Below are positions 1,026 to 44,096 of a DNA stretch of 64,000 nucleotides, one piece after another. Position 1 is the stretch's first letter. Every line of letters begins with the position of its first letter. A program made the translations under genes and the position numbers. The stretch comes from an uncultured Acidimicrobiia bacterium (GTDB lineage: Bacteria; Actinomycetota; Acidimicrobiia; Spongiisociales; UBA4744): contig CAYLHS010000001.1 in the NCBI GenBank assembly GCA_964383535.1, positions 20,026 to 84,025 of the forward strand, written 5' to 3'. A model generated the notes under the pieces. That model saw nothing but the letters and a program-made list of their open reading frames with translations. It was not told where the DNA came from and did not search any database.

Positions 1026-1392
1026 GTGAACCATGTGCACGTCGCCAAGGGGTCCGGCATCACCGATGCGGACGCGGCCGGTGGGGTCAGTCGCCGGACC
1101 GCTGTCGACGAACCCACGCTCTGGGCAGGGATTTCGACGGTACCGGCAGGTGCCTCCACCGGGTGGCATCACCACGGAACCAACACCACCGGTGTTCTCC
1201 ATGCTGTCGGGCACACTGACGGTTGAACATGGAGACGACGAATCCTCTGAAGCGACGACGGGGGACTTCGTGGTAGTTCCGGCAGGTGTCGAGCACAGAG
1301 AAATCGTCAGCAGCAATGTTGACGTTCGGGCGGTTGTCATGCGTTTCGGCGACGGCGAAGGACCGCTGGTCGTCGACGTGGACAGGGGATGA
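1026..1392 (+). pseudogene. cupin-domain protein with apparent +1 frameshift near 1195-1200
   Basis: A GTG at 1026 sits 5 nt after a GGGAGGGAG ribosome-binding site. Frame 0 encodes cupin motif 1 (GASTGWHHHGTNTTG) then stops at 1226. Frame +1 continues with cupin motif 2 (VFSMLSGTLTVEHGDDE...GDFVVVPAGVEHREI) to 1392. The total length, 367 nt, is not a multiple of 3. Confidence 0.4.
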
Positions 1393-1400
1393 CAGGGGCA

Positions 1401-1838
1401 CTAGCTGCGGGTCAGGTGCTTGACACCGAACGGAACGAGCCGGTCGTCCTCGCGTGAGAACTGCTTGATGCTCCACCCGTCACCCTCTGGAATCACGTCG
1501 GTCACGAACTCGCCTTGACGGTAGGGGAACGCGAATCGGACGCCCCCGTCCTCCAAAGGGGATCCCGGCCCCGGAGTTGAGTATGCCGCTCCGAACGTGT
1601 CGAAGAGAAACATCATCAGATGTCCCTGTTCCGCGGGATCCCATCCGATGAACGCGAAGGCCTCGTACGGTGTGTCCGTCAAGGGGGTAACGGTCGACGG
1701 CAGATAGTGCATCCTGAGGTAGGCGCCACCGAGCACCCATTCGACCTTCACCTCCTGTACGAGGCGTTTGCCGAGAATCTCGCCCTCGAGATGCCAGTCG
1801 CCAACAAGGCCGTCGAGTGTGCGCACTGGAAAACCCAT
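1401..1838 (-). CDS. hypothetical protein (DUF1579-like beta-barrel; family assignment is from memory only)
   Basis: A 145-aa ORF with coding-like composition, W/G-rich (GDWHLEGE...WVLGGAYL), and no overlap with other strong calls. Confidence 0.4.
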   Translation of the reverse strand: MGFPVRTLDGLVGDWHLEGEILGKRLVQEVKVEWVLGGAYLRMHYLPSTVTPLTDTPYEAFAFIGWDPAEQGHLMMFLFDTFGAAYSTPGPGSPLEDGGVRFAFPYRQGEFVTDVIPEGDGWSIKQFSREDDRLVPFGVKHLTRS

Positions 1839-1871
1839 GGGACGTATTGTCTCACGTAGCTGGCCGACGGC

Positions 1872-2030
1872 CTACGAGTCGGGGAGTGATGCGCCGATGA
1901 GATCGATGCCGATCTGGTCGACATCGTTGTAGTTGTTGGTCAACGCGACCACGTCGGCCTGCGGCCGTGCGAAGAAATCGAGGAAACAGCGGTACCCGCC
2001 CGTGGCTTCGTGGGTTTCCACCATTTCAAG
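1872..2030 (-). pseudogene. C-terminal remnant of a serine-hydrolase/beta-lactamase-family gene
   Basis: The last ~50 codons of ORF 1872..2327 (GGYRCFLDFFARPQADVVALTNNYNDVDQIGIDLIGASLPDS) align with the C-terminus of the full-length gene at 4030..5196 (GGYWCYVGFLQDKQVGVVVLTNTFHSVDQIGLDLLAKS). The upstream part of this ORF has no such similarity. Confidence 0.4.
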
Positions 2031-2238
2031 CGGCCAGATGACACCGCGTGTCCTCGTCCTCGAAGCATCGCCAGGTGCGCCTTCGTCCTTGCGATCCGGC
2101 GTAACTCGCCCAGCACATCGCCACCGTTGCCGGCCAGAGCGTTGACGACCGCGTCGGCCGCTCGCTCGCGGCGCCTCGCGGCGGATCAGCGCCCGGGAGG
2201 TATGATCTCCGCCGAAGAACGAGCCAGAGGACAGGGAC

Positions 2239-2841
2239 ATGAGGGCTCGAATGGTCGTGTGGCTGATCTGCCTCGCGCCATTCCTCGTCGGCTGCACGAA
2301 CCGCGGGGTTGAGCGAACCGTGCCCACCCAGCAGAACGACGTCTCATACTTCCCGATCGAGACTGCCGTCGACCTGGCCCGGATGTCGTCCGCGGTGGTG
2401 GTTGGCGAGTTCGAACGGGTCGAGAGCGACGTCTGGGTGGAACCTACGGACGCCGAGGATCAATCGGGTCCAGTGACCGAGTACGACGGTTGGGTGTTTC
2501 GCCCGGTCGAATGGGTCAAGGGAGGCGGTGACGACGAGATCGTGATGGTCCTTCCCTCCGCTGTACGTGATGCCGAGAGCGGCGAGACCATGTCTCGTTT
2601 CAGCCTCGACAGCTACCCGGCCTTCGACGTTGGGCAGCGCTTCGTGCTGTTCCTCGCTCGAGTCGGAGAAACCGGCTTCTGGGTGCCCACCGCCGGACCC
2701 CTCGGGGTCGCTGAAATCACAGTCGCGGGGACGCTACGTCTGTCATCTGGCACCGACCTGTCAGGCGACAGGCCGCTCGAGGAGTACCAGGGGCACGACG
2801 TGGCCGAGCTGATCGACGCAGTCCGGGACTCCGAGCGCTGA
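2239..2841 (+). CDS. hypothetical lipoprotein
   Basis: N-terminal signal peptide with a lipobox (LAPFLVGC, Cys +1); alternative start at the Met of MVVWLICLAP; no recognisable catalytic motif. Confidence 0.5.
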   Translation: MRARMVVWLICLAPFLVGCTNRGVERTVPTQQNDVSYFPIETAVDLARMSSAVVVGEFERVESDVWVEPTDAEDQSGPVTEYDGWVFRPVEWVKGGGDDEIVMVLPSAVRDAESGETMSRFSLDSYPAFDVGQRFVLFLARVGETGFWVPTAGPLGVAEITVAGTLRLSSGTDLSGDRPLEEYQGHDVAELIDAVRDSER

Positions 2842-3101
2842 TCGCCCGCGGGACTACTCACGCGTGTCGGCTGGTCAGATCACCTGGGACGTTGTGCGTT
2901 GAGATGCTGCGGTTCAGGTGGGGGAGTAGTCAAGGGGACCTCTGGTGAATGGTCATCCATGATCCGTGAGTGGATGGAGTGTCTTCCGGCTGGAACTGCC
3001 TGCAACGCTCCAGCCAGGCGAGTCCTGCAGACGCAGGAGCGGCGGTCCACCTTCGATCCTCCGGACGAATCCCGGATCTGGAGGGCGGCTAGCCTCGCCG
3101 G

Positions 3102-3857
3102 ATGCGATTCCGTGAGATCGACCGACACCTTCGGGAGGGTCTGGCCAGGTACGGGCGCGTCGAGGCCACGCTCTTCGACAGTCCGGGTACGACGATCGCC
3201 CCGGTCGAAGACAGGGAGAGAACCAGCCGAGCGTCGGCCTACCTGGTCGGTGCTCACACCATCATCTACTGCGATTCCGCGGTCGCCGACACCGTCCGGT
3301 TGCTGGCGGATCCCGCCAGGTCGTTGCCACCGTCGGAGCTCAGAGGCTGGGCGACAGGGCACGGCTACGAATTCGAAGGCGGCGGCTGGATCCACCTTGT
3401 AGACGCGTCGATGATGAGGCCACCAGACCTTCCTGAGGGCACGACCCCGATTGTGCTCGACGCTGACGATCCCGACGACCGGGCGCTCATCGCCGACTTG
3501 GTGGATGCAGTCGGACCCGACGACGCGGACGAGGCGGATGTGAATCTCGACAACCTCGACCCGTTCATCCTGGCGCTCGTCGATCAACAGGGCAGGATCG
3601 GTGCCTACGCCAGCGAACGGCCCTTCGAGTACGGAGAGAGCTTCGCCGACATTGCCGTTCTCACCCGTCCGGAGATGCGCGCGCAAGGGTGGGGGAGCGC
3701 CGCCGTGTCGACACTGTGCGAACAGATCTTCGACCGAGGTCGGCTGCCGCTGTACCGCTGCAATTGGGAGAACTCGGGTTCACGCCGTCTCGCACTGTCG
3801 CTCGGATTCGTCGAAACGGTCACGCTCGCCGCAATGCACCTGCACGTTCGGCCCTGA
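3102..3857 (+). CDS. GNAT-family N-acetyltransferase (tentative)
   Basis: The C-terminal half has GNAT-like acetyl-CoA binding-region spacing (RAQGWGSAAVSTLCEQIFDRGRLPLYRCNWENSGSRRLALSLGF). Confidence 0.45.
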   Translation: MRFREIDRHLREGLARYGRVEATLFDSPGTTIAPVEDRERTSRASAYLVGAHTIIYCDSAVADTVRLLADPARSLPPSELRGWATGHGYEFEGGGWIHLVDASMMRPPDLPEGTTPIVLDADDPDDRALIADLVDAVGPDDADEADVNLDNLDPFILALVDQQGRIGAYASERPFEYGESFADIAVLTRPEMRAQGWGSAAVSTLCEQIFDRGRLPLYRCNWENSGSRRLALSLGFVETVTLAAMHLHVRP

Positions 3858-3903
3858 ACAGCCGGCACGCTCCAACGAGTAGGTTCGTGTCAGGAGGACA
3901 CAC

Positions 3904-4017
3904 ATGGAGTCACGCAACATCAACCCCTGGCTCTTGGTCCTGATGTCGATCGCCGTCGCCTGGATCGTTGCCCGAATCGCATTTGCCGCGACTCGGCATC
4001 AGACGGAGAACGGATAG
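3904..4017 (+). CDS. small hydrophobic peptide (37 aa), hypothetical
   Basis: ATG sits 5 nt after a strong AGGAGGA ribosome-binding site. Sequence MESRNINPWLLVLMSIAVAWIVARIAFAATRHQTENG* gives one predicted TM helix. Not in the ORF track because it is under 60 aa. Confidence 0.3.
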   Translation: MESRNINPWLLVLMSIAVAWIVARIAFAATRHQTENG

Positions 4018-4029
4018 CTCAATCTCGAG

Positions 4030-5196
4030 CTACGACTTCGCGAGCAGGTCGAGGCCGATCTGATCGACGCTGTGAAAGGTGTTGGTGAGAACAACGACTC
4101 CGACCTGTTTGTCCTGGAGGAACCCCACGTAGCACCAGTACCCGCCGGTGGCACCGTGGTCCTCGACGACCTCCCCGTAGCTTCGATGGTGGATGTGCCA
4201 GCCAAGGCCGACACCGTAGATGTCGTCCGCTTGGTGGAAGCGCTGGTGAGTGAGCTGCATCGCGTCGAAGAGGTCCGACTCCTGGAGGCCGAGATTCGCC
4301 GCCAGGTAGGTGAGGAGATCGCGCACCGTGCTCCTCAGCTCGCCCGCCCCTGCGAGCGTCGGGTTGTCCCACAGCGGAAAGACCACCTTGTCGCGATACC
4401 CGAGTGCGAGGCGGCTCTCCATGTCTGAAGTCAGGGTCGCCCGTGTGTCCGGCATTCCGAGCACATCGGTAATTCTGGAGATCACGAGATCCTCGTAGCT
4501 CATCCCGCTGTGCAGCTCGAGGATGTGTCCCAGCACGCCCATCCCGAAGTTCGAGTACTGGTACTCCGACCCGGGTGCGGTCGACAGCTCCACGGTTCCG
4601 AGCTCCTCGTACATCTGATCGAACGTGTAGTCGGCGTACGGCCTCAGCTCATCGGCGGGGTTCAGGTTGCTGGGCAGGTTCGGCAACCCAGACGTGTGCG
4701 TGGCGAGATCCACGAGCGTGATCGAGCGACCCTCGTACGTGGGCACGTCGACGTCGGCGGGGAGATACTCCTCGATCGGATCGGAGAGCGCCAACTCGTT
4801 GTGCTGCACCATGTCGGCGAGAAGGATTCCCGTGAACGATTTGCCAGTGGAGCCGATCTCGAAGACCGTATCCTCGTCGAGTGGACGACCCCCTTCCAAG
4901 CTCGAGGCGCCGTACGCGAAGACGTCTTGTCCGCAGGGACCGACGACACCCATGACGATGCCCACGTTCGCCTCTATATCGACATACGAGCGGACTTCGT
5001 CTTTGATCGACTCCGGGATGCCGCACGGGGCAGCAGCCGTGGTGCTGGTTGTCGCGGGGGCGTTGGTCGTCGTGGAGGCGCTGGTTGTCGGAAGAACGGT
5101 TGTCGACGGGCTGTTCGTCGTCGTGTCGGCCGTCGATGGCGTGCACGACGCGAGGAACAGAGTCGTTGCCAGAGCGAGTCGCACTGCCGGTCGCAT
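4030..5196 (-). CDS. serine hydrolase / class C beta-lactamase-family lipoprotein
   Basis: Start reset to the Met of MRPAVRLALATTLFLASC (lipobox), which sits 10 nt after a GAGAGGGA ribosome-binding site. A Thr/Ser-rich linker follows, then the SxxK motif GSTGKSF. The 494-aa ORF-track version has a compositionally odd N-terminal extension. Confidence 0.75.
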   Translation of the reverse strand: MRPAVRLALATTLFLASCTPSTADTTTNSPSTTVLPTTSASTTTNAPATTSTTAAAPCGIPESIKDEVRSYVDIEANVGIVMGVVGPCGQDVFAYGASSLEGGRPLDEDTVFEIGSTGKSFTGILLADMVQHNELALSDPIEEYLPADVDVPTYEGRSITLVDLATHTSGLPNLPSNLNPADELRPYADYTFDQMYEELGTVELSTAPGSEYQYSNFGMGVLGHILELHSGMSYEDLVISRITDVLGMPDTRATLTSDMESRLALGYRDKVVFPLWDNPTLAGAGELRSTVRDLLTYLAANLGLQESDLFDAMQLTHQRFHQADDIYGVGLGWHIHHRSYGEVVEDHGATGGYWCYVGFLQDKQVGVVVLTNTFHSVDQIGLDLLAKS

Positions 5197-5433
5197 GAGC
5201 CAATCGTATCCCTCTCGCTGACGGGCTACATGATCCGAGAGTGAACGACAACACCATGAGAACACCTGCTGCCGTGTATTCATCGCCGTTCCTTGTCTTG
5301 ACCGATGATCGAGGTGCCACCGCCAGTGCGACGGCGCGTGCGCTGTTCCGACGGCGTGTTTGGCGACCGAGCCGTGTCTCCCGGGCAAGGGACCCACATG
5401 GGCGGATATCCTCGAAGACGACAAGGAGGCGGA

Positions 5434-6849
5434 ATGGAGCAGACACCGGTGCGTGTCGCCGGCACACGAATCACTACCGATCAGTCCATCGAGGTCCGGA
5501 ATCCCTACTCGCACGAGGTCATCGGGCTCGTTCCAGCATGTGGCGCCGCCACCGTGACAACCGCCTGCGAAGCGGCCGCGATGACACTCGCACGCGACGA
5601 CTTCCCTCAGTATCGGAGAGCGGAAGTCCTCGAGAATGCAGCCCGACTCGTCTCCGAACGAATCGACGAGTTCGGTCGCACAATTGCACTCGAGGCCGGC
5701 AAACCGATTCGCACCGCCCGTGCCGAGGCGGCCCGTTGCGTCGACACGCTCACGTTTTCGGCTGCGGAAGCAAGGAAGCTCACCGGCGAGATGATCCCGA
5801 TGGACGCCTCCCGGTCAGGGTACGGGCGTCTCGCGTTCGCGCTACGGGTACCGATCGGCGTGGTCGCGGCGATCACACCGTTCAATTTCCCCTTGAACCT
5901 GGTCGCCCACAAACTCGCGCCTGCGATCGCCGCCGGCTGTCCCGTCGTCCTCAAGCCTGCATCGTCGACACCGTTCTCGTCGATCATGCTGGTCGAGTTG
6001 CTGATCGAAGCCGGTATGCCGGCCGACTGGATATCGATCGTGACCGGTTCCGGCAAGGAAGTCGGTGAGCCGCTGATCACCAACCCGATTCCGGCGCTGG
6101 TCACATTCACGGGAAGCCCCGCCGTGGGATGGCACATCCCGGCACAGGCCCCACGCAAGAAGATCTCACTCGAACTCGGCTCGAACTCGCCACTGATCGT
6201 CGAACCGGATGCAGATCTGGATCTCGTCGCCTCGAAGGTGCGGGTTGCGGGATTCTCGTACGCAGGTCAGAGCTGCATCTCGACCCAACGGGTCCTCGTG
6301 CACGAGTCCGTCCATGACCGGTTCGTCGAGATGCTCGCCGAAGCGATCGGAACACTCGTTGTCGGTGACCCCCTCGACGAGACGACCGACGTGGGACCAC
6401 TGATCTCGCCCGAAGAGACACAGCGGGTCCTCGGCTGGATCGACGCGGCGGTCGCCGACGGTGCCACCGTCGTGGCCGGCGGCGTACTGGAAGACGGCCT
6501 GCTCATGCCCACGCTCGTGGACAACGTCCCCCTCGATGTCGACCTCTGCGCAAAGGAGGTGTTCGGCCCCGTCGTGGCGATACTTTCCTACTCGACGTTC
6601 GACGAGGCCCTCGAGATCGCCGACATGGGCGACTACGGCCTCCACGCAGGGATCTTCACAACGGACCTGCATAAGGCGCTCAAAGCCGCACGGACGCTCC
6701 ACTTCGGTGGCGTCCTGATCAACGAGGTGCCCACCTATCGAGCCGACCAGCAACCGTACGGAGGTGTCAAGGACTCGGGGAACACTCGAGAAGGACCGGC
6801 CTACGCAGTACACGAGATGACGCAACTCCGCTTCATCCATCTCGGCTAG
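5434..6849 (+). CDS. NAD(P)-dependent aldehyde dehydrogenase (succinate-semialdehyde DH-like)
   Basis: ATG follows an AAGGAGG ribosome-binding site. ALDH hallmarks: ITPFNFP, catalytic Glu in LELGSNSP, catalytic Cys in GQSCIS. Confidence 0.85.
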   Translation: MEQTPVRVAGTRITTDQSIEVRNPYSHEVIGLVPACGAATVTTACEAAAMTLARDDFPQYRRAEVLENAARLVSERIDEFGRTIALEAGKPIRTARAEAARCVDTLTFSAAEARKLTGEMIPMDASRSGYGRLAFALRVPIGVVAAITPFNFPLNLVAHKLAPAIAAGCPVVLKPASSTPFSSIMLVELLIEAGMPADWISIVTGSGKEVGEPLITNPIPALVTFTGSPAVGWHIPAQAPRKKISLELGSNSPLIVEPDADLDLVASKVRVAGFSYAGQSCISTQRVLVHESVHDRFVEMLAEAIGTLVVGDPLDETTDVGPLISPEETQRVLGWIDAAVADGATVVAGGVLEDGLLMPTLVDNVPLDVDLCAKEVFGPVVAILSYSTFDEALEIADMGDYGLHAGIFTTDLHKALKAARTLHFGGVLINEVPTYRADQQPYGGVKDSGNTREGPAYAVHEMTQLRFIHLG

Positions 6850-6860
6850 GAGGCAGCGCG

Positions 6861-8120
6861 ATGAGTACACGACTCTCCCCACTCCTCACCCAGGCGACCG
6901 GGGTGACGGCGGTCAGAGGTGAGGGCGTCTACCTGTACGACGCCGATGGCAGGCGATATCTCGACTTCACTTCAGGGATTGGGGTGACCAATACCGGTCA
7001 TTGCCATCCAGCGGTGGTCGAGGCCGCCCAACGTCAGGCAGGGGAGCTGATCCATGGGCAGTACACAACCGTGCTGCACCCTGCGCTCCTCGAGCTGACG
7101 GAACGTCTGGGGGACGTCCTCCCGGCCGAGCTCGACTCTCTGTTCTTCACGTCGGCGGGAACCGAAGCCGTTGAGGCGGCGACCAGACTCGCCAAGCAGA
7201 CGACGGGACGAACGAATCTCATCGTCTTTCAGGGTTCCTTTCATGGACGGACCACTGCCGCCCTGTCGATGACCACCTCCAAGGCGGCCTACCGGGCAGG
7301 CCTCCAGCCACTCATGGCGGGGGTATTCGTTGCGCCATTCCCCTACGCGTACCGGTACGGCTGGGACGAGGAGACGACCACCGCGTTCACGCTCAGGGAA
7401 CTCGACTACCTGTTTGCCACCCAGTCGGCGCCGCGAGAGACAGCAGCCATATTCGTCGAGCCCGTCCTCGGCGAAGGGGGCTATGTGCCGGCGACGCCGG
7501 GCTTCCTGGAAGGTCTTCGGGAGCGCTGTGACCGTCACGGCATCCTGCTCGTGATCGACGAGGTCCAGAGCGGCTTTGGCCGCACCGGACGCTTCTGGGG
7601 TCACGAGCACTACGACGTCCGCCCCGACGTGCTGGTTACGGCCAAGGGACTGGCTTCCGGATTCCCGCTGTCCGCGATCGCCGCATCCACAGAGCTGATG
7701 GAGCGTGCGTGGGCCGGCTCGCAGGGCGGCACGTACGGAGGAAACGCCGTCGCCTGTGCGGCGGCTGTCGCGACCCTCGACGTCATCCAGAAGGAGGGAC
7801 TGGTCGAGAACGCCGACACTCTCGGAGCGCACCTCATGACGGCGCTCGGCGGGCTCCAGCAACGCTACCCGGTGATCGGTGACGTGCGAGGCAAGGGGCT
7901 GATGGTGGCCACGGAGTTCTCGACCGGCGGCGAACCCGACTCGAGCCGCGCGAAGCAGGTACAGAAGGCCGTGGAACAGCGGGGCCTTCTGATGCTGACA
8001 TGTGGGCCGCTCGGCAATGTGATCCGGTGGATTCCACCTCTCATTGTGACGAGCGAGCAGATCGACCATGCATTGGGGCTCTTCGAGGAGGCCCTCGCCG
8101 AGACCGCAAAGGAGACCTGA
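6861..8120 (+). CDS. class III (omega) aminotransferase, 4-aminobutyrate aminotransferase-like
   Basis: DEVQSGFGRTG motif and PLP lysine in TAKGLASG; lies immediately downstream of the ALDH. Confidence 0.85.
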   Translation: MSTRLSPLLTQATGVTAVRGEGVYLYDADGRRYLDFTSGIGVTNTGHCHPAVVEAAQRQAGELIHGQYTTVLHPALLELTERLGDVLPAELDSLFFTSAGTEAVEAATRLAKQTTGRTNLIVFQGSFHGRTTAALSMTTSKAAYRAGLQPLMAGVFVAPFPYAYRYGWDEETTTAFTLRELDYLFATQSAPRETAAIFVEPVLGEGGYVPATPGFLEGLRERCDRHGILLVIDEVQSGFGRTGRFWGHEHYDVRPDVLVTAKGLASGFPLSAIAASTELMERAWAGSQGGTYGGNAVACAAAVATLDVIQKEGLVENADTLGAHLMTALGGLQQRYPVIGDVRGKGLMVATEFSTGGEPDSSRAKQVQKAVEQRGLLMLTCGPLGNVIRWIPPLIVTSEQIDHALGLFEEALAETAKET

Positions 8121-34931: not shown

Positions 34932-35698
34932 CGTTCACTTCGGGCGACCACTGCCTACTGGTGGATCTCCGGGGACGCAGATATCTGGTCACGCTCAAGG
35001 AAGGGGGTGAGTTCCATTCCCATCTCGGCGCCCTCCCACACGATGACGTGATCGGGGTCCAGGAGGGAACGCTGATCGCAACCACGACTGGCAGCCGGCT
35101 GCTGGCCATTCGCCCGCGGTACGTCGACTATGTCCTCAAGATGCGACGCGGAGCCCAGGTCGTGTACCCCAAGGACGTCGGACCGATCCTCGTCTACGGA
35201 GACATCGGTCCAGGCGAAACGGTGCTCGAGGCGGGTACCGGTTCCGGCGCGCTCACGATCGCTCTGGTGAGGGCGGTGGGCGCCACCGGGAAGGTGATCA
35301 GTGTCGAAACACGCGAAGACCACGCGGCGCACGCCCGCAGAACCATCGACGCGTTCTTCGGGGCCCTCCCGGTCAACCTGGACCTGCGAATCGGGTCGAT
35401 AGAAGACGTCGGAGCGTCCGTGTCGCCAACCCGAATGGTGCTCGATCTGCCCGAACCCTGGCATGTGGCCGAGGGCGGCGGTGGTCTACAGCCCGGGGGC
35501 GTATTCGTCGCCTACCTACCGACCGTTCCGCAAGTTCAGACGCTGGTCGAGACGATGCGGGCGACGGGGGCGTACCAGATGATCGAGACGTTCGAGACCC
35601 TCCATCGGTCCTGGAACATCGAAGGAAGGTCGGTGCGACCCGATCACCGTATGGTTGGCCACACCGGGTTCATCGTTGTCGGTCGTCGAACACGTTGA
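34928..35698 (+). CDS. trmI: tRNA (adenine58-N1)-methyltransferase
   Basis: ATGA overlap with the upstream stop; SAM motif VLEAGTGSGALT; architecture as in M. tuberculosis Rv2118c, which also neighbours the mpa locus. Confidence 0.8.
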   Translation: MTFTSGDHCLLVDLRGRRYLVTLKEGGEFHSHLGALPHDDVIGVQEGTLIATTTGSRLLAIRPRYVDYVLKMRRGAQVVYPKDVGPILVYGDIGPGETVLEAGTGSGALTIALVRAVGATGKVISVETREDHAAHARRTIDAFFGALPVNLDLRIGSIEDVGASVSPTRMVLDLPEPWHVAEGGGGLQPGGVFVAYLPTVPQVQTLVETMRATGAYQMIETFETLHRSWNIEGRSVRPDHRMVGHTGFIVVGRRTR

Positions 35699-35714
35699 GG
35701 GGACCCAATGGTCG

Positions 35715-35960
35715 TCAGGGTTCGATGAAGATGCACTCGCCGGGGCACTCCTCCGCCGACTCGATCACCATCTCCTCTTGCCCATCTGGCACCACGGCCA
35801 GCCCCTGAGCCCCTTCGGGGTTGCCCTCGGATGCGGCGAAGATCTTGTCGCCCTCCTTGACGTAGGCCAGACCGTCGTCCAGTAGGACGAAGACATCGGG
35901 TGCGATCTCCTCGCAGAGGCCGTCGCCCGTGCAGAGATCTTGGTCGATCCAAACCTTCAT
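35715..35960 (-). CDS. small ferredoxin (single Fe-S cluster, actinobacterial 7-kDa type)
   Basis: Start reset to MKVWIDQDLCTGDGLCEE...CPGECIFIE, with a GGAGA ribosome-binding site 10 nt upstream. Confidence 0.7.
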   Translation of the reverse strand: MKVWIDQDLCTGDGLCEEIAPDVFVLLDDGLAYVKEGDKIFAASEGNPEGAQGLAVVPDGQEEMVIESAEECPGECIFIEP

Positions 35961-36061
35961 TGTGCGAGAGTCTCCTTCGTGGATACGGGGCATGATACCC
36001 ATGTTCTGAGTTGGTGTGACTCCATCGCCAAGCACGCGCCGGTCGTATACTTCGCGAGGTC

Positions 36062-37756
36062 ATGAGCGACGAGGCCCGGCTCCAAGCAACGATTGCCGAA
36101 CTCGAGTCGCAGGTCGAGCACCTGCGAACGGGCGCAGAACACGCGCGATCTCTCGAGCGGCAGCTGTCCGATGTTCGTGTTCAGCTCGACGACACCGTCG
36201 CCAGAAACGCCAGACTCACCTCGGTGCTGACGGAAGCCCGAGAGCAGCTCGCGCTCCTGCGTGAGGAGATCGAGAAGCTCTCGGCACCGCCCAACCAATT
36301 CGGCACCGTTGTGCAGGTGAATCAGGACGGCACCGTCGACGTCATGAACAGCGGCAGGAAGCTTCGAGTCACGGCGCACCCATCGATCGAAGTGAAGCAA
36401 CTCGCACGTGGTCAAGACGTGCTCTTGAACGAAGCGATGAACATCGTGGACGTACGGCAGTTCGCGCAGGCGGGTGAGGTCGTCATCGTCAAGGAGGGCC
36501 TGGAGGCGGGACGGCTTCTCGTGCTCGGACGTGGAGACGAAGAACGGGTGGTCGAGATTGCCGAACCGCTCGAAAACGAGTCACTGCGTGCCGGTGACGC
36601 GGTTCGTCTCGATGGGAGAACCGGACTCGTTTTCGAGAAGCTGAACCGCCCAGAGATCCAAGAGCTGATCCTCGAGGAAGTCCCCGACGTCACGTATGAG
36701 CAGGTGGGAGGGCTTCGCAGTCAGATCGAAGCCATCCGAGACGCGGTCGAGCTTCCCTACGTTCACAAAGAGCTCTTCGAGCAGTACGGGCTCGAAGCTC
36801 CGAAGGGTGTGCTGCTGTACGGCCCGCCCGGCTGCGGCAAGACACTCATCGCGAAAGCGGTGGCAAACAGCCTGGCCACGGCCGTCACCGAGCGGACGGG
36901 GCGAGCGGACGTCAAGTCCTACTTCCTGAACGTCAAAGGTCCCGAGTTGCTCAACAAGTACGTGGGTGAGACGGAGCGGCAGATCCGCTTGATCTTCTCC
37001 AGAGCCAAGGAGAAATCCGATCAGGGAGTGCCCGTCATCGTGTTCTTCGATGAGATGGACTCGCTGTTCCGAACGAGGGGAACCGGCGTCTCCTCCGATA
37101 TGGAGTCGACAGTGGTTCCTCAGCTGCTGTCCGAACTCGACGGCGTCGAGAGCCTCAAGAACGTCATCGTGATCGGCGCATCGAACCGCGAAGACCTGAT
37201 CGACCCTGCGATCCTTCGGCCAGGTCGTCTCGACGTGAAGATCAAGATCGACCGCCCGGACGAGGAATCAGCCCGGCAGATCTTCCGCATCTACTTGGGA
37301 GACGTGCCGATAGACGCGAGCGAAGTGGAGGCCTCGCGAGGCGACCGGGATGCCGTGGTGACGTCGATGATCCAACGTACCGTCGAGCGAATGTACTCGA
37401 CGGACGACGAGAACAAGTTCCTCGAGGTGACCTACGCCAACGGAGACAGAGAGCTGCTGTACTTCAAGGACTTCTCGAGCGGGGCGATGATCCAGAACAT
37501 CGTCAGCCGAGCGAAGAAGGAAGCGATCAAGCGCGAAATCGATGGTGGCGGCCGAGGTGTCCGAACGGAGGACCTCATGGAGGCGATCCGAAGCGAGTTC
37601 ACCGAACACGAGGACCTCCCCAACACGACGAACCCGGACGACTGGGCGAAGGTGTCAGGCAAGAAGGGCGAGCGCATCGTGTACGTACGGACGTTGGTGC
37701 GTGGCGAGGACAAGTCGAAGAAGATCGAAGCCGTCACAACCGGCCAGTACCTCTGA
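36062..37756 (+). CDS. arc: proteasome-associated AAA ATPase ARC/Mpa
   Basis: N-terminal coiled coil, OB domains, Walker A GPPGCGKT, and the C-terminal GQYL proteasome-docking motif. Confidence 0.9.
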
Positions 37757-37763
37757 GGTTCCC

Positions 37764-39248
37764 ATGAGTTCCGGCCGCAATAGCGAGGATCTCGCGGTAC
37801 TTGGCACCGAAACCGAGTTCGGCATCACCATCGAGGGGCGAACCCAGGACAGTGCGGTGCTCTCGTCAGGGTTGGTCGTCCAATCTTCGCCGGACGGTGT
37901 TCCCGTGCGGTGGTCGCTCACAGAAGAATCGCCCGGCCGGGATGCCCGGGGAAGGCGGTACACGGTCCCCGTGGATGCTGATCCGGAAGCGCTCAACGCG
38001 TTGCTTCCGAACGGGGCCCGGCTCTACGTAGACCACGCCCACCCCGAGTACTCGACACCTGAGTGCTTGGGTGCACGCCAGGCCGCCCTGTACGACAAAG
38101 CAGGCGAGTTGGCCCTCGCGCGTGCCGCCCGCAACACGCAGCGTCTCCTCCCGTCGGGAGAGAGGGTGTCGATCTACAAGAACAACAGCGACGGCAAGGG
38201 CAACTCGTACGGCGCTCACGAGAACTACCTGGTCGACCGATCGGTACCGTTCTCGGACATCATCGACTACCTCACGACATTCCTCGTGACCCGCCAGATC
38301 TTCACTGGCTCCGGAAAGGTCGGCTCAGAGAATGGCCGGCCTACGGTCCCGTACCAGATCAGTCAACGAGCCGACTTCTTCGAAACGCGCGTCGGACTCG
38401 AGACGACGATTCGCCGTCCGATCATCAACACCCGCGACGAACCGCACAGCGACCCAGATCGGTTCCGCAGGCTCCACGTGATCATCGGAGACGCGAATCG
38501 CTCCGAACCTCAAGTCTTTCTCAAGCTCGGAGCGACGGCACTGATGCTTGCCGCCATCCAAGATGGAGCGCTTCCCGACAGGCTGGAACTCGACGATCCC
38601 GTCTCGGCCACATGGGAGGTCAGCCACGACCGTGGATTGAGCCACCGGCTTCGACTTGCCGACGGGTCGTCGGCGACCGCTCTCGAGCTTCAGTGGCAGT
38701 ACCTCGACTGGCTGAGCAAGTACGCAGAAGCCGGGTCCAGGCCGGACGAGGGAGCGCTCGATGTGTGGCGAGGAGTCCTCGAGGACTTGGAGATCGACCC
38801 CCTACGCACCGCAGACCGTCTCGACTGGACGGCCAAACTGCGCATCATGGAGGCCTACCAAGCGCGCGAGGGCATAGGGTGGGATCATGCAAGGGTCCGC
38901 GCACTCGACCTGCAATACCACGACGTGGACCCTGCCAAGGGTCTCTACGACCGCCTCGTGGCAAGAGGATCCATCGAGCGGCTCTTCGACGACCACCAGG
39001 TCGCGATGGCACTGGAGGAACCGCCAGGCGAAACGAGGGCGTATTTTCGTGGCAGGTGTGTGCGGAAATTCGGATCCTCCATCATGTCCGCCAACTGGGA
39101 TTCGCTGGTCTTCGACACGGGTGAAACCACATACAAGCGAGTGCCTATGATGGATCCCCTGAGAGGCGACGCCGATCGAGTGGCCGATGTGATCGATACA
39201 TCGGAGGACGTCATGTCGCTGATCGAAGCACTAGGAAGCGAACAATGA
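37764..39248 (+). CDS. dop: Pup deamidase/depupylase
   Basis: GTETEFG N-terminus, carboxylate-amine ligase fold with the Dop-specific insertion; 494 aa; stop overlaps the pup ATG. Confidence 0.9.
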   Translation: MSSGRNSEDLAVLGTETEFGITIEGRTQDSAVLSSGLVVQSSPDGVPVRWSLTEESPGRDARGRRYTVPVDADPEALNALLPNGARLYVDHAHPEYSTPECLGARQAALYDKAGELALARAARNTQRLLPSGERVSIYKNNSDGKGNSYGAHENYLVDRSVPFSDIIDYLTTFLVTRQIFTGSGKVGSENGRPTVPYQISQRADFFETRVGLETTIRRPIINTRDEPHSDPDRFRRLHVIIGDANRSEPQVFLKLGATALMLAAIQDGALPDRLELDDPVSATWEVSHDRGLSHRLRLADGSSATALELQWQYLDWLSKYAEAGSRPDEGALDVWRGVLEDLEIDPLRTADRLDWTAKLRIMEAYQAREGIGWDHARVRALDLQYHDVDPAKGLYDRLVARGSIERLFDDHQVAMALEEPPGETRAYFRGRCVRKFGSSIMSANWDSLVFDTGETTYKRVPMMDPLRGDADRVADVIDTSEDVMSLIEALGSEQ

Positions 39249-39424
39249 AAGAACAGACCCGCAAGCCTCATCCCGAGGAAGAACAACCTCCTGAGCAGGA
39301 CATCCCGGCGGCGCCTCAGGCCGACACCGGCGACCTGGACGATCTCCTCGACGAGATCGACGACGTTCTGGAAGAGAACGCAGAGGAGTTCGTCAGGAAC
39401 TACGTACAGAAGGGCGGAGAGTGA
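39245..39424 (+). CDS. pup: prokaryotic ubiquitin-like protein Pup (C-terminal GGE)
   Basis: 59 aa: MKEQTRKPHPEEEQPP...DDLLDEIDDVLEENAEEFVRNYVQKGGE*; ATGA overlap with the dop stop and GTGA overlap with the prcB start. Not in the ORF track (under 60 aa). Confidence 0.85.
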   Translation: MKEQTRKPHPEEEQPPEQDIPAAPQADTGDLDDLLDEIDDVLEENAEEFVRNYVQKGGE

Positions 39425-40182
39425 TCGAACGTCCGACCTCGAGTTTCACCGATCTCCTCCAATCGCTCGGGCTGGAACCCAAGTGGAGCATCCCGGACGG
39501 TAGCGGGGCGCTGGAGGCGCCAATCGCGACGACGGTCCTGGCCCTGAGGTTCGCCGACGGTGTGGTGATGGTGGGCGACCGTCAGGCGACCGAAGGACAC
39601 CTCGTAGCCCACAGAACCATCCGGAAGGTGTTCGAGGCGGATCGATTCTCGGCTGTGGCGATCTCAGGGACGGCGGGCATCGCCGTCGATCTCGTTCGTC
39701 TCTTCCAGACAGAACTCGAGCACTATGAGAAGCTCGAAGGCACGAGGCTCAGCCTGGACGGCAAGGCGACCTACCTCGGCCGCATGGTTCGACAGCAACT
39801 TCCCCTCGTCTTCCAAGGTCTTGTCGTGGTTCCATTGTTTGCCGGCTACGACGAAAGCGACAAGATTGGCCGGCTCTATACGTTCGACGTCGTCGGCGGC
39901 CGGTACGAGGAACGTGAGTATGGCGCGACCGGCTCGGGGTCAAGGGACGCGAAAGCGTATCTGCGCTCGGCGTATGCACCTGAGCTCGACGAAGCCGGCG
40001 CACTCGAGGTCGGGGTGCGAGCACTCGTCGCCGCCGCGCAGGTCGATACGGCGACCGGTGGACCGGACCTGGCTCGAGGGATCCTTCCGAATGTGGTGAC
40101 CGTGACCGAACGAGGATTCGAGGAAATCGATGAGGACGTCGTGGGCGATCTCGCGTCTGCGGCATTGGAGACAATCAGATGA
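39421..40182 (+). CDS. prcB: 20S proteasome beta subunit
   Basis: Propeptide then catalytic Thr in ...APIATTVLALRFADGVVMVGDRQAT. Confidence 0.9.
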   Translation: MIERPTSSFTDLLQSLGLEPKWSIPDGSGALEAPIATTVLALRFADGVVMVGDRQATEGHLVAHRTIRKVFEADRFSAVAISGTAGIAVDLVRLFQTELEHYEKLEGTRLSLDGKATYLGRMVRQQLPLVFQGLVVVPLFAGYDESDKIGRLYTFDVVGGRYEEREYGATGSGSRDAKAYLRSAYAPELDEAGALEVGVRALVAAAQVDTATGGPDLARGILPNVVTVTERGFEEIDEDVVGDLASAALETIR

Positions 40183-40853
40183 GTGTCCCCTTCTACGTTC
40201 CGCCTGAGCAACTCGTGAAGGACCGCGCCGAGTTCGCGCGCAAGGGAATCGCGCGTGGCCGCTCGATCGTTGCGATCGAGTACGACCAGGGGATCCTGAT
40301 CTTCGCTGAGAACCCGAGCGACACACTGCACAAGATCAGCGAGATCTATGACAGAGTGGCATTCGCAGGGGTCGGGAAATTCAACGAGTTCGAGAGTCTT
40401 CGAGTTGCCGGAACACGCCACGCCGACCTTCGTGGCTACCTCTACAGCAGGTTCGATGTGAGCGCGAAAACACTGGCAAACGCGTTTTCCCAGACGCTTG
40501 GCAACATCTTCACCCACGAAGTCAAACCGTACGAGGTGGAGATCCTCGTTGCGGAACTCGGCATCAACGGCGACCCGAACCATCTCTACCGTGTCACATA
40601 TGACGGAACCCTGTCCGACGAGCGGTACGTGTGCGCGATCGGCGGGCAATTCGAGGCCCTCGACGAGTCGCTGCGCGGTGCGTCCTTCGCCCCGAAGCCC
40701 CTCGCGGTGACTATTCGCCGGGTCGCTGAGGTCTTCGGCCAGGTCCTTGACCGGGAGGTCGACGGTTGGGAGGCCGCGGTGCTGGACGGTACGAAACACC
40801 GTCGGGTGTTCCGGCGGCTCTCGGACACCGACGTGGACGCCGCGCTCTCCTGA
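40179..40853 (+). CDS. prcA: 20S proteasome alpha subunit
   Basis: Start overlaps the prcB stop; alpha-subunit fold (YDRVAFAGVGKFNEFE...). Confidence 0.9.
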   Translation: MSVPFYVPPEQLVKDRAEFARKGIARGRSIVAIEYDQGILIFAENPSDTLHKISEIYDRVAFAGVGKFNEFESLRVAGTRHADLRGYLYSRFDVSAKTLANAFSQTLGNIFTHEVKPYEVEILVAELGINGDPNHLYRVTYDGTLSDERYVCAIGGQFEALDESLRGASFAPKPLAVTIRRVAEVFGQVLDREVDGWEAAVLDGTKHRRVFRRLSDTDVDAALS

Positions 40854-40871
40854 CCGGCGTACCCTGAGTCG

Positions 40872-42227
40872 ATGCAGCGCCGCATCTATGGACTCGAAAC
40901 CGAATACGGGGTCACGTGCACTCTCCGAGGGCAGCGGAGGCTGAGTCCCGATGAGGCCGCCCGCTACCTGTTCCGCAGAGTGGTGAGCTGGGGCAGATCC
41001 TCGAACGTGTTCCTCGAGAACGGCGCCCGGCTGTACCTCGATGTCGGAAGTCATCCCGAGTACGCGACACCGGAGTGCGACACCATCGGAGATCTCGTCG
41101 CAGCGGACAAGGCGGGTGAGCGGGTCCTGCACGAACTCGTCGGCGAAGCCCAGGCACGGCTTGGAGAAGAAGGAATCTCCGGAGAGATCTACCTGTTCAA
41201 GAACAACACCGACTCGGCAGGCAACTCGTACGGCTGTCATGAGAACTACCTCGTCAGAAGGGAAGCGAACTTCGCAGCGACCATCGACGCGCTTCTCCCG
41301 TTTCTGGTGACACGACAGATCTACACAGGTGCGGGGAAGCTGCTCCGGACCGCGCGGGGCGTTCGGTTCACGATCTCCCAGCGCGCCGAGCACGTCTGGG
41401 AGGGGGTGTCGTCCGCAACGACGCGCAGCCGCCCGATCGTCAACACGCGGGACGAACCCCACGCTGATGCCGCCATATTCCGACGACTGCACGTGATCGC
41501 AGGCGACTCGAACATGTCGGAACAGGTCACCTACACGAAAGTCGGTGTGGTGGGCGCGCTCCTCCAGATGCTCGAAGCCGGCAAGACGTTCAGAGCGCTG
41601 GATCTCGAGAATCCGATCAGGGCCATCAGAGAGATCAGCGCGGACCCGACATGCAGACGGCGTGTGCGCCTGGCAAACGGCCGTGAACTGTCTGCACTCG
41701 ACATCCAATGGGAGTACCTCGACGAGGTATCCCGATACGGCAGGCTCCATGGATTCCCCCCGTCGATCGAGGCCGCGGTCCGATACTGGGAACAGATGCT
41801 CGTCGGCATCGAAAAGGACCCGATGTCGCTCGCCGACCAACTCGACTGGGCGGCGAAGTGGAGCCTGATCGAGGCATACCGGAGCCGCCACGAGCTCTCG
41901 CTGTCGAATCCGAAGCTCGCAATGATGGATCTCGCCTACCACGACATCGATCCGGATCGTGGCCTCTATCACCTCTTGCTGCGCGCCGGGCGCATGCGTC
42001 GAGCAGTTGACGACGAGGCGATCCAACGCTTCACACTGGAACCTCCGACGACCACTCGAGCGAGACTGCGCGGGAGTTTCATCAAGGCAGCAAAGGCTGC
42101 CGGGCGTGACTTCACTGTGGACTGGGTCCATCTGAAGCTCAACGATCAAGCAAAACGCACGATCCTCTGCAAGGACCCGTTCGTACACACGGACAGGCGG
42201 GTGGAGAGACTGATCGAAGGCCTTTGA
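40872..42227 (+). CDS. pafA: Pup-protein ligase
   Basis: [17 protein letters not shown]...[32 protein letters not shown] is near-identical in pattern to mycobacterial PafA. Confidence 0.9.
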
Positions 42228-42273: not shown

Positions 42274-43182
42274 ATGCGACGCGTCATCGAACGGCTCTTG
42301 AATCTGCTCGCCTTCCTGCTCACTGCGGAACGGCCTGTCACTGCCGAGGAGATTCGGGTGACGGTGGCCGGATACGCGAACGAGTCCGACGAGGCGTTCC
42401 ACAGGATGTTCGAGCGGGACAAGGCGCTGCTTCGACGAATGGGCATACCCCTCGAGCTCAGAGCGACCGATGGCTGGGAGGTCGAGTACGGGTACGCGCT
42501 GCAGCCAGACGAGTATCAGCTCCCAGACCCGGATCTCAACGACGAAGAACGCGCAGCGTTGTGGCTTGCAGCTCAGGTCGTGCGCCTTGGGGGACAACCC
42601 GCGGGACCGGACGCCCTGCTCAAACTCGGAGGGTTGACAATGGCGGGGGGAGGCGAGCCATTGGCCGCCGATCTCGGGCTGGAGACCGGCGACCTGGAGA
42701 CCGCGTTTCACGCCGCGACCGAACGAAGAGAGTTGTCGTTCGACTACCACGGTCGAACCCGGACGGTGCAGCCCATGGGCATCCTCCACCAGCGGGGGCA
42801 CTGGTACCTCGTTGCTTTTGAAGCGGGCGTACAACGGTCTTTCAGAGTCGACAAGGCCGCGCGGCTGGTCCTGGGTGAGCGGGCCGGGGCCTTCACTCGG
42901 CCAAAGGGGTTCCGTCTGCGCGACGCCGTGCCGGTCGAGCCGTGGGCGATCGGTGAGGCGGACGTCGTCGCCAGGGTGCTGTTCGATCCCGACGCGGCAT
43001 GGTGGGCCAGACGCCAACTCACCGGTGGGGTCACCGAGCTCGACGACGGCTCACTCGAGGCCACAGTCACCGTTGCAAACCCCGACGCGTTCATCGGGTG
43101 GTTGTTGAGCTTCGAAGACAAGGCCGAGATCGTCGAGCCTCCGGAACTTCGGGCAATGCTCATCGAACGAGTACGCCAATGA
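42274..43182 (+). CDS. pafB: WYL-domain transcriptional regulator
   Basis: HTH + WYL architecture immediately after pafA. Confidence 0.8.
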   Translation: MRRVIERLLNLLAFLLTAERPVTAEEIRVTVAGYANESDEAFHRMFERDKALLRRMGIPLELRATDGWEVEYGYALQPDEYQLPDPDLNDEERAALWLAAQVVRLGGQPAGPDALLKLGGLTMAGGGEPLAADLGLETGDLETAFHAATERRELSFDYHGRTRTVQPMGILHQRGHWYLVAFEAGVQRSFRVDKAARLVLGERAGAFTRPKGFRLRDAVPVEPWAIGEADVVARVLFDPDAAWWARRQLTGGVTELDDGSLEATVTVANPDAFIGWLLSFEDKAEIVEPPELRAMLIERVRQ

Positions 43183-44096
43183 GCCGGACGGCGCAACGCC
43201 TGACGCGGATCCTCTCGATGGTCCCATGGGTGATCGCTCATCCGGGAGCGACCGTCACCGGCGTGTGCGAACGGTTCGGCTACACGAAAGACGAATTGAT
43301 CGCCGACCTCAACCTGGTGTTCGTCTGCGGACTGCCCGGGTACGGGCCCGGCGACCTGATGGTGGCATACGTCGAGGACGACGAAGTCGTCATCGACATG
43401 GCCGACTACTTCTCGCGAGCATTGCGGCTCAGTATGTCGGAAGCACTCGCTCTGCTCGCCGCGGCAGAAACCCTCATGGCGACCGATCAGGCGCCGCCCG
43501 CCCTCAGGAGCGCGGTGGTGAAGCTCACCCGGGTGCTCGGCATCGAGTCCGACGAGACGATCGCGATCGAGATCGACAGCGAGAGTTCGATCGTCACGAC
43601 ACTGCGCTCCGCCGCCGCGGAGGGACGCGTCGTCGACCTGACCTACACATCACTCTCCAAGGGAGAGACCACCAGACGGCTGATCGAGCCCTGGTCGGTC
43701 TTCACCACGCTGGGAAACTGGTATGTGTCCGCCTACTGCAGGACGGCACGGGCAGAGCGCGTGTTTCGCATGGATCGGATCCGCTCGGTCGAAGCGACGG
43801 GGGAGCGTTTCGCTCCCAATCCGGACCCACCTGCACCCGTGGTCCGATACACCCCGTCCGAGGACGACGTGCAGGCCACCATTCGCCTCGGACCGCGTGC
43901 CGCCTGGGTCGCCGACTACTACCCGGTCGACGTGATCGACACGGATCCTCTCACCGTCCGTTTCTCAACATCGGATGCCGGTGTCGCCGCCAGGCTGCTG
44001 GTACGACTGGGAGGTGACGCCGTCCTCGTGAAGGGCCCCGAAGTCCGCGAGGCGACGGCCTCACTGCGAAAACGCATCCTCACTAGATACGTGTGA
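43179..44096 (+). CDS. pafC: WYL-domain transcriptional regulator
   Basis: ATGA overlap with the pafB stop; start reset to MSRTAQRLTRILSMVPW. Confidence 0.8.
   Translation: MSRTAQRLTRILSMVPWVIAHPGATVTGVCERFGYTKDELIADLNLVFVCGLPGYGPGDLMVAYVEDDEVVIDMADYFSRALRLSMSEALALLAAAETLMATDQAPPALRSAVVKLTRVLGIESDETIAIEIDSESSIVTTLRSAAAEGRVVDLTYTSLSKGETTRRLIEPWSVFTTLGNWYVSAYCRTARAERVFRMDRIRSVEATGERFAPNPDPPAPVVRYTPSEDDVQATIRLGPRAAWVADYYPVDVIDTDPLTVRFSTSDAGVAARLLVRLGGDAVLVKGPEVREATASLRKRILTRYV

Follow-up and report, generated by a model that had tools for sequence, protein, structure and literature searches.

A predicted PupE-type Pup-proteasome locus with a retained dop gene in an uncultured Acidimicrobiia-like actinobacterium

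Described Pup systems and the layout of the locus

Pup is a small, acidic protein with a size range of about 60-70 aa (PMC3511204). Mpa, PafA and Dop all bind to its C-terminal half, which carries the pattern LLDEID-VLE-NAE-FV. Whether the last three residues are GGQ or GGE varies 'depending on the bacterial species' (PMC3511204, 2012). In mycobacteria they are invariably GGQ, and Dop has to deamidate this Pup before it can be ligated (PMC3511204, PMC12288473). The reference case for the GGE terminus is Corynebacterium glutamicum, in which Pup is encoded with GGE, dop has been kept and Dop serves as a depupylase (PMC3511204); the Dop of this species is the model depupylase (PMC8599861). In corynebacteria, prcB and prcA are absent and the ATPase has no proteasome-docking motif (PMC3511204). 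Deamidation and depupylation rely on the same active-site chemistry (PMC12288473, PMC8599861), and reviews of 2012 and 2025 describe PupE species as retaining Dop as a depupylase. What follows from a PupE accompanied by a retained Dop is therefore already known: it has been textbook knowledge since 2010-2012 (C. glutamicum) and is repeated in current reviews.

The DNA analysed here, a stretch of 64,000 nt ('the window'), contains the genes mpa-dop-pup-prcB-prcA-pafA-pafB-pafC in that order (Table 1). Judged from its sequence, the locus is predicted to encode a complete, canonical Pup-proteasome system of an uncultured Acidimicrobiia-like actinobacterium; all six core genes scored above the cut-offs of curated profiles. 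Gene content, the order dop-pup-prcB-prcA and pafA-pafB-pafC, and the GQYL end of Mpa are as in Mycobacterium tuberculosis, whose Pup, however, has 64 aa rather than 59 and ends in GGQ rather than GGE. Unlike the corynebacteria, the window has both 20S proteasome subunits and an Mpa with GQYL, the proteasome-docking motif (PMC12288473). Direct reading of the Mpa C-terminus gave ...TTGQYL, and the Pfam content of this protein comprised AAA and the Prot_ATP_ID_OB N and C domains. Among experimentally studied systems, C. glutamicum comes closest (PupE plus Dop, without a proteasome); in gene order it is M. tuberculosis (PupQ). Other Acidimicrobiia MAGs supply the nearest homologues of this Pup (identity up to 90%), in loci laid out alike, and the window is a further member of this set with no difference of substance. 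Beyond correct annotation its value is slight, consisting in a complete PupE-type Pup-proteasome system in an uncultured Acidimicrobiia-like organism.

Table 1. Genes of the Pup-proteasome locus in the window, with their profile matches
Gene	Product	Length (aa)	Position	Strand	Profile match
mpa/arc	Proteasomal AAA+ ATPase	564	36062..37756	+	TIGR03689, 758.1 bits (cut-off 504.75)
dop	Depupylase/deamidase	494	37764..39248	+	TIGR03688, 559.8 bits (cut-off 492.3)
pup	Pup, PupE type (C-terminal GGE)	59	39245..39424	+	PF05639, 73.7 bits (gathering score 27); TIGR03687, 70.6 bits (cut-off 41.45)
prcB	20S proteasome beta subunit with propeptide	253	39421..40182	+	TIGR03690, 277.7 bits (cut-off 191.9)
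prcA	20S proteasome alpha subunit	224	40179..40853	+	TIGR03691, 273.4 bits (cut-off 139.05)
pafA	Pup-protein ligase, without Dop-loop	451	40872..42227	+	TIGR03686, 657.6 bits (cut-off 551.3)
pafB-like	WYL/WCX regulator	302	42274..43182	+	Pfam WYL and WCX
pafC-like	HTH_PafC/WYL regulator	305	43179..44096	+	Pfam HTH_PafC, 103.9 bits; WYL

Several genes overlap by 4 nt. The pup ATG begins at 39245 and the dop TGA lies at 39246-39248 (ATGA); likewise, the prcB GTG begins at 39421 and the pup TGA lies at 39422-39424 (GTGA). Since prcB and prcA also overlap by 4 nt, dop, pup, prcB and prcA may be translationally coupled as parts of one operon. A Shine-Dalgarno-like AGGAAG was found 6 nt upstream of the pup ATG. 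The locus is preceded on its 5' side by a gene for a TrmI-like methyltransferase and, on related contigs, also by a small ferredoxin gene.

Gene starts were compared with those called on six related contigs (L001-L006). The mechanically derived dop ORF (37542-39248) begins 74 codons early, and its segment 37542-37763 runs over the 3' end of mpa, out of frame with it; the true start is the ATG at 37764, 8 nt past the mpa stop, which gives the same 494-aa protein that JGI called on four contigs. The 253-aa prcB was called on all six contigs and the pafB-like gene on L005. For the pafC-like gene, the start in Table 1 was taken from the JGI call on L005 (position 4043, equivalent to 43179 in the window), the mechanical ORF starting at 42999. 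In L002 (5628-6278), pafA is present in two pieces of 98 and 72 aa, which is probably an assembly frameshift error rather than a pseudogene. Two antisense ORFs, one of 770 aa on the minus strand opposite prcB, prcA and pafA (39876-42188) and one of 138 aa (35644-36060), had no Pfam match; they were rejected as genes and are regarded as shadow ORFs of GC-rich coding DNA (63.6% GC).

Dop and the proposed working of the system

In all likelihood, pup belongs to a canonical Pup-proteasome system of the actinobacterial kind, complete and of the PupE type, in which Dop would act as a depupylase with no need for deamidation. What was observed here are the gene identities, the recurrence of the glutamate codon, the conservation of the Dop residues and how often the arrangement occurs; the enzymatic steps of ligation, unfolding and depupylation are drawn by homology from established biochemistry (PMC8223512, PMC7947786, PMC12288473). 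PafA would phosphorylate the gamma-carboxylate of the C-terminal glutamate and then link Pup to substrate lysines. Mpa, which ends in GQYL, would bind Pup and unfold the tagged protein into the PrcAB 20S proteasome. Dop, with ADP and Pi, would cleave the isopeptide bond, rescuing the substrate and recycling Pup. With a PupE, the deamidation step would not be needed. The original prediction had proposed that the terminal glutamate makes the modifier ligation-competent without deamidation and that Dop is presumably just a depupylase here; both proposals agree with what the literature states for PupE and for the Dop of PupE species (PMC3511204, PMC12288473).

The Dop of the window was compared with that of Acidothermus cellulolyticus (PDB 4B0R, 5LRT, 7OXY, others), to which it is 52.6% identical over 477 aligned residues; the match to structures 5LRT/4B0R had E = 1.4e-148. 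Against the PafA model it scored 368.4 bits, under the 551.3 cut-off of that model, while it exceeded the cut-off of the Dop model. Residues E8, E10 and E99 of the Acidothermus enzyme, which we take to be glutamine-synthetase-like active-site residues, align with E16, E18 and E95 of the window's Dop. In the same alignment R90, Y92, D94 and H95 correspond to R86, Y88, D90 and H91, the Dop-loop residue W47 to W50, the alpha-loop residue T217 to T214, and W453 to W445. The catalytic residues, whose integrity the original prediction had left to be checked, are intact: all ten of the catalytic, Dop-loop and alpha-loop residues inspected, that is, the three glutamates plus those highlighted in structural work (PMC8599861), have been kept. 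The Dop-loop includes the conserved Trp (W50) and an RDARG motif, and no Dop-loop was found in the window's PafA when it was aligned pairwise with Dop.

The Acidothermus enzyme, which was crystallised with its own PupQ (PMC8599861), differs from the window's Dop in the Dop-loop region, which is 12 residues shorter in the latter (47 vs 59 residues between equivalent anchors). This shortening might be taken as a sign that dop, no longer needed for deamidation, is being lost or has turned into a variant specialised for depupylation alone, unlike the Dop of PupQ species. Such an explanation appears very unlikely. The gene is full-length, its product scores above the equivalog cut-off, and W50, T214 and all the catalytic residues are conserved; the active-site chemistry shared by deamidation and depupylation (PMC12288473, PMC8599861) also speaks against it. 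Further, an alignment of 71 Dops from loci with known Pup termini showed nine of the checked positions to be invariant in PupE and PupQ species alike, and the E8-equivalent position to be E in 70 sequences and D in one. No Dop column among these 71 sequences tracked the E/Q state past the Bonferroni threshold: the lowest p-value was 6.7e-5, the threshold being ~2e-5, and raw p-values are inflated by shared ancestry. All candidate columns were confounded by phylogeny. A depupylase-only Dop was accordingly rejected, the aligned sequences giving no sign of such a subtype, and the preferred reading remains that of an ordinary Dop with an intact active site, predicted to act as a depupylase.

The pup gene and its terminal codon

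Direct translation of the ATG-initiated pup ORF gave 59 codons (MKEQTRKPHPEEEQPPEQDIPAAPQADTGDLDDLLDEIDDVLEENAEEFVRNYVQKGGE) followed by a TGA stop, with YVQKGGE immediately before the stop. The terminal GAG is one base away from CAG, and two related Pups (P0007 and P0009, 72-77% identity) end in GGQ; a sequencing or assembly error that turned a true PupQ gene into an apparent PupE could therefore be imagined. The chance of this is very small. The six related contigs, each from a different sample (five from JGI metagenomes, one a Logan assembly), carry a pup identical to that of the window at 180 of 180 bases, including GGC GGA GAG TGA, and both the dop/pup and the pup/prcB overlaps are present on all six. 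Over the locus as a whole they match the window at 98.8-99.98% identity and so differ from it elsewhere; judging by their sequences, they are independent assemblies of closely related strains. An identical Pup protein was found on at least ten contigs, six of which were those compared in detail. In addition, the next nearest distinct Pups, P0002-P0006, at 77-90% identity, have the GGE terminus as well. An error at the last codon, which the original prediction had itself named as what would overturn its GGE terminus, is in effect refuted by the identity of the six contigs. A comparison of C-termini across relatives, which it had also proposed, gave a divided result: P0002-P0006 share the GGE end, while P0007 and P0009 do not.

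Since the length of an ORF says little in DNA of 63.6% GC, the status of pup as a gene rests on profile scores far beyond chance. The 59-aa peptide matched Pfam PF05639 with E = 2.3e-20 and also NCBIfam TIGR03687 (ubiquitin-like protein Pup; scores in Table 1), and it had 3562 homologues at E <= 0.001 in a collection of 5.8 billion proteins. The conserved C-terminal half of Pup is present as LLDEIDDVLEENAEEFV, and the gene lies where a pup is expected, directly 3' of dop and 5' of prcB. At 59 aa, the protein is one residue below the range given in PMC3511204; its nearest relatives have 59-62 aa and keep its MKEQ start. The idea that this reading frame between dop and prcB arose by chance and is no gene, for which one could cite its shortness and the abundance of spurious ORFs in such GC-rich DNA (the 770-aa antisense ORF, with no Pfam match, is an example), is already refuted by the profile scores, the number of homologues, the conserved dop-prcB position and MKEQ start, and the upstream AGGAAG, and has practically no likelihood left. 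The 59-codon ORF is, on these sequence criteria, a genuine Pup gene. An HMM based on 122 Pup sequences (120 homologues and two cluster members) was run over the window in all six frames and matched the known gene alone, with no second pup copy.

The original prediction had thus correctly given the coordinates, length, terminus and both 4-nt overlaps of the ORF, and had identified it as Pup, which the profile searches bore out. It had also held the gene to be hidden and liable to be missed by ORF-based annotation. This does not stand, because the identical 59-aa protein is already present in NCBI, JGI/IMG and Logan, and NCBI and JGI name it 'ubiquitin-like protein Pup'; gene calling on each of the six related contigs also gave this 59-aa product, with PF05639. 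The argument that a gene of fewer than 60 codons is hidden applies only to an ORF list filtered at 60 aa. Overall, the feature is real and was properly located and identified, but its presentation as hidden and rare was not borne out.

Frequency of the GGE terminus and Pup loci of other layouts

Among the nearest homologues (the best 120 of 3562), 87 end in GGE and 33 in GGQ. A second sample was drawn from species-dereplicated GTDB genomes with a DNA pattern encoding F-V-x-x-[YF]-V-Q-K-G-G-[EQ]-stop, which misses Pups without that F-V. It comprised at least 120 loci (L007-L126), arbitrary rather than ranked by similarity, so that percentages are estimates, and it spanned Streptomyces, Mycobacteriales, Micrococcales, Acidimicrobiia, Nitrospira and others. 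All 120 matches were bona fide Pup tails; among the matches listed, 44 (37%) ended in GGE and 76 in GGQ. Grouped by record title, both ends occurred in Streptomyces (12 E and 10 Q among the matches listed) and in Acidimicrobiia-type genomes (9 E and 9 Q among the 18 listed), which are of the host's class to judge by how its closest homologues are named; the Nitrospira matches listed were all E (5 E, 0 Q). Those from Mycobacteriales were all Q among the matches listed, including three Corynebacterium species; these encode GGQ, yet C. glutamicum is the textbook PupE organism. As a rough estimate, PupE would be found in about a third of Pup-bearing species and in about half of those of the host's class.

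Where at least 1.7 kb of upstream sequence was available, a Dop-type gene, defined by a better score with the window's Dop than with its PafA, lay directly upstream of pup in 30 of 33 GGE loci among the matches listed. Nine further GGE loci with shorter upstream sequence contained a partial Dop, and the three loci without an adjacent dop were all from Nitrospira. GGE with dop kept is the normal state of PupE organisms. The description of this combination as a minority arrangement can be defended in numbers overall, though only weakly (44/120, 37%, in the species sample; 9 of 18 in the host class; 87 of 120 among the nearest homologues), and it carries no significance.

Fitch parsimony on a neighbour-joining tree of the 71 Dops required at least 17 switches of the Pup E/Q state, a figure possibly inflated by tree error; that switching is frequent is independently shown by the mixed states within genera. 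Together with the rough estimate that a third of Pup-bearing species are PupE, this frequent switching within genera is a mildly useful by-product of the survey. An unlikely idea is that the Q 'pro-form', far from being a near-neutral polymorphism, works as a labile checkpoint that regulates pupylation. If it were true, the PupE lineage of the window and its GGQ neighbours would be a natural matched pair for probing the role of the deamidation step.

Some Pup loci in the survey were of other layouts. All five pup genes from Nitrospira/Nitrospirales (L013, L050, L058, L104 and L111) end in GGE. The Pup of L058 (5475-5678) is genuine (75 bits), its neighbours being a TPR protein and RNase H. These genes appear to be unlinked from the enzyme genes, unlike in the actinobacterial operon, because no dop, pafA, mpa or proteasome gene was found within the respective 8-kb blocks (for L050, a 3.5-kb contig).

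A divergent Pup-like ORF of 66 aa (PF05639, 54.9 bits) was found in Streptomyces sp. NPDC020681 (L024; NZ_JBIRTX010000011.1, 128001-136000; region 1249-4697). Its tail is ...LLDEIENAGEFVKGYVQKGGQ, and about seven of the usual helix residues are missing. It is followed after 3 nt by a RimK-like ATP-grasp ORF (1453-2538). A PLP-decarboxylase-like ORF comes next, an amino-acid permease lies on the upstream side, and the 8-kb block contained no dop, pafA, mpa or proteasome gene. Searching the literature for Pup-like genes adjoining ATP-grasp/RimK enzymes turned up nothing relevant; the locus may represent a non-canonical Pup-like/ATP-grasp module. Finally, in L055 (MAG MFD05942.bin.2.12; about 3700-7100), Dop and Mpa are split among several frames, and the Pup ORF is cut short; the broken Dop and Mpa are probably the result of assembly frameshift errors rather than pseudogenes.
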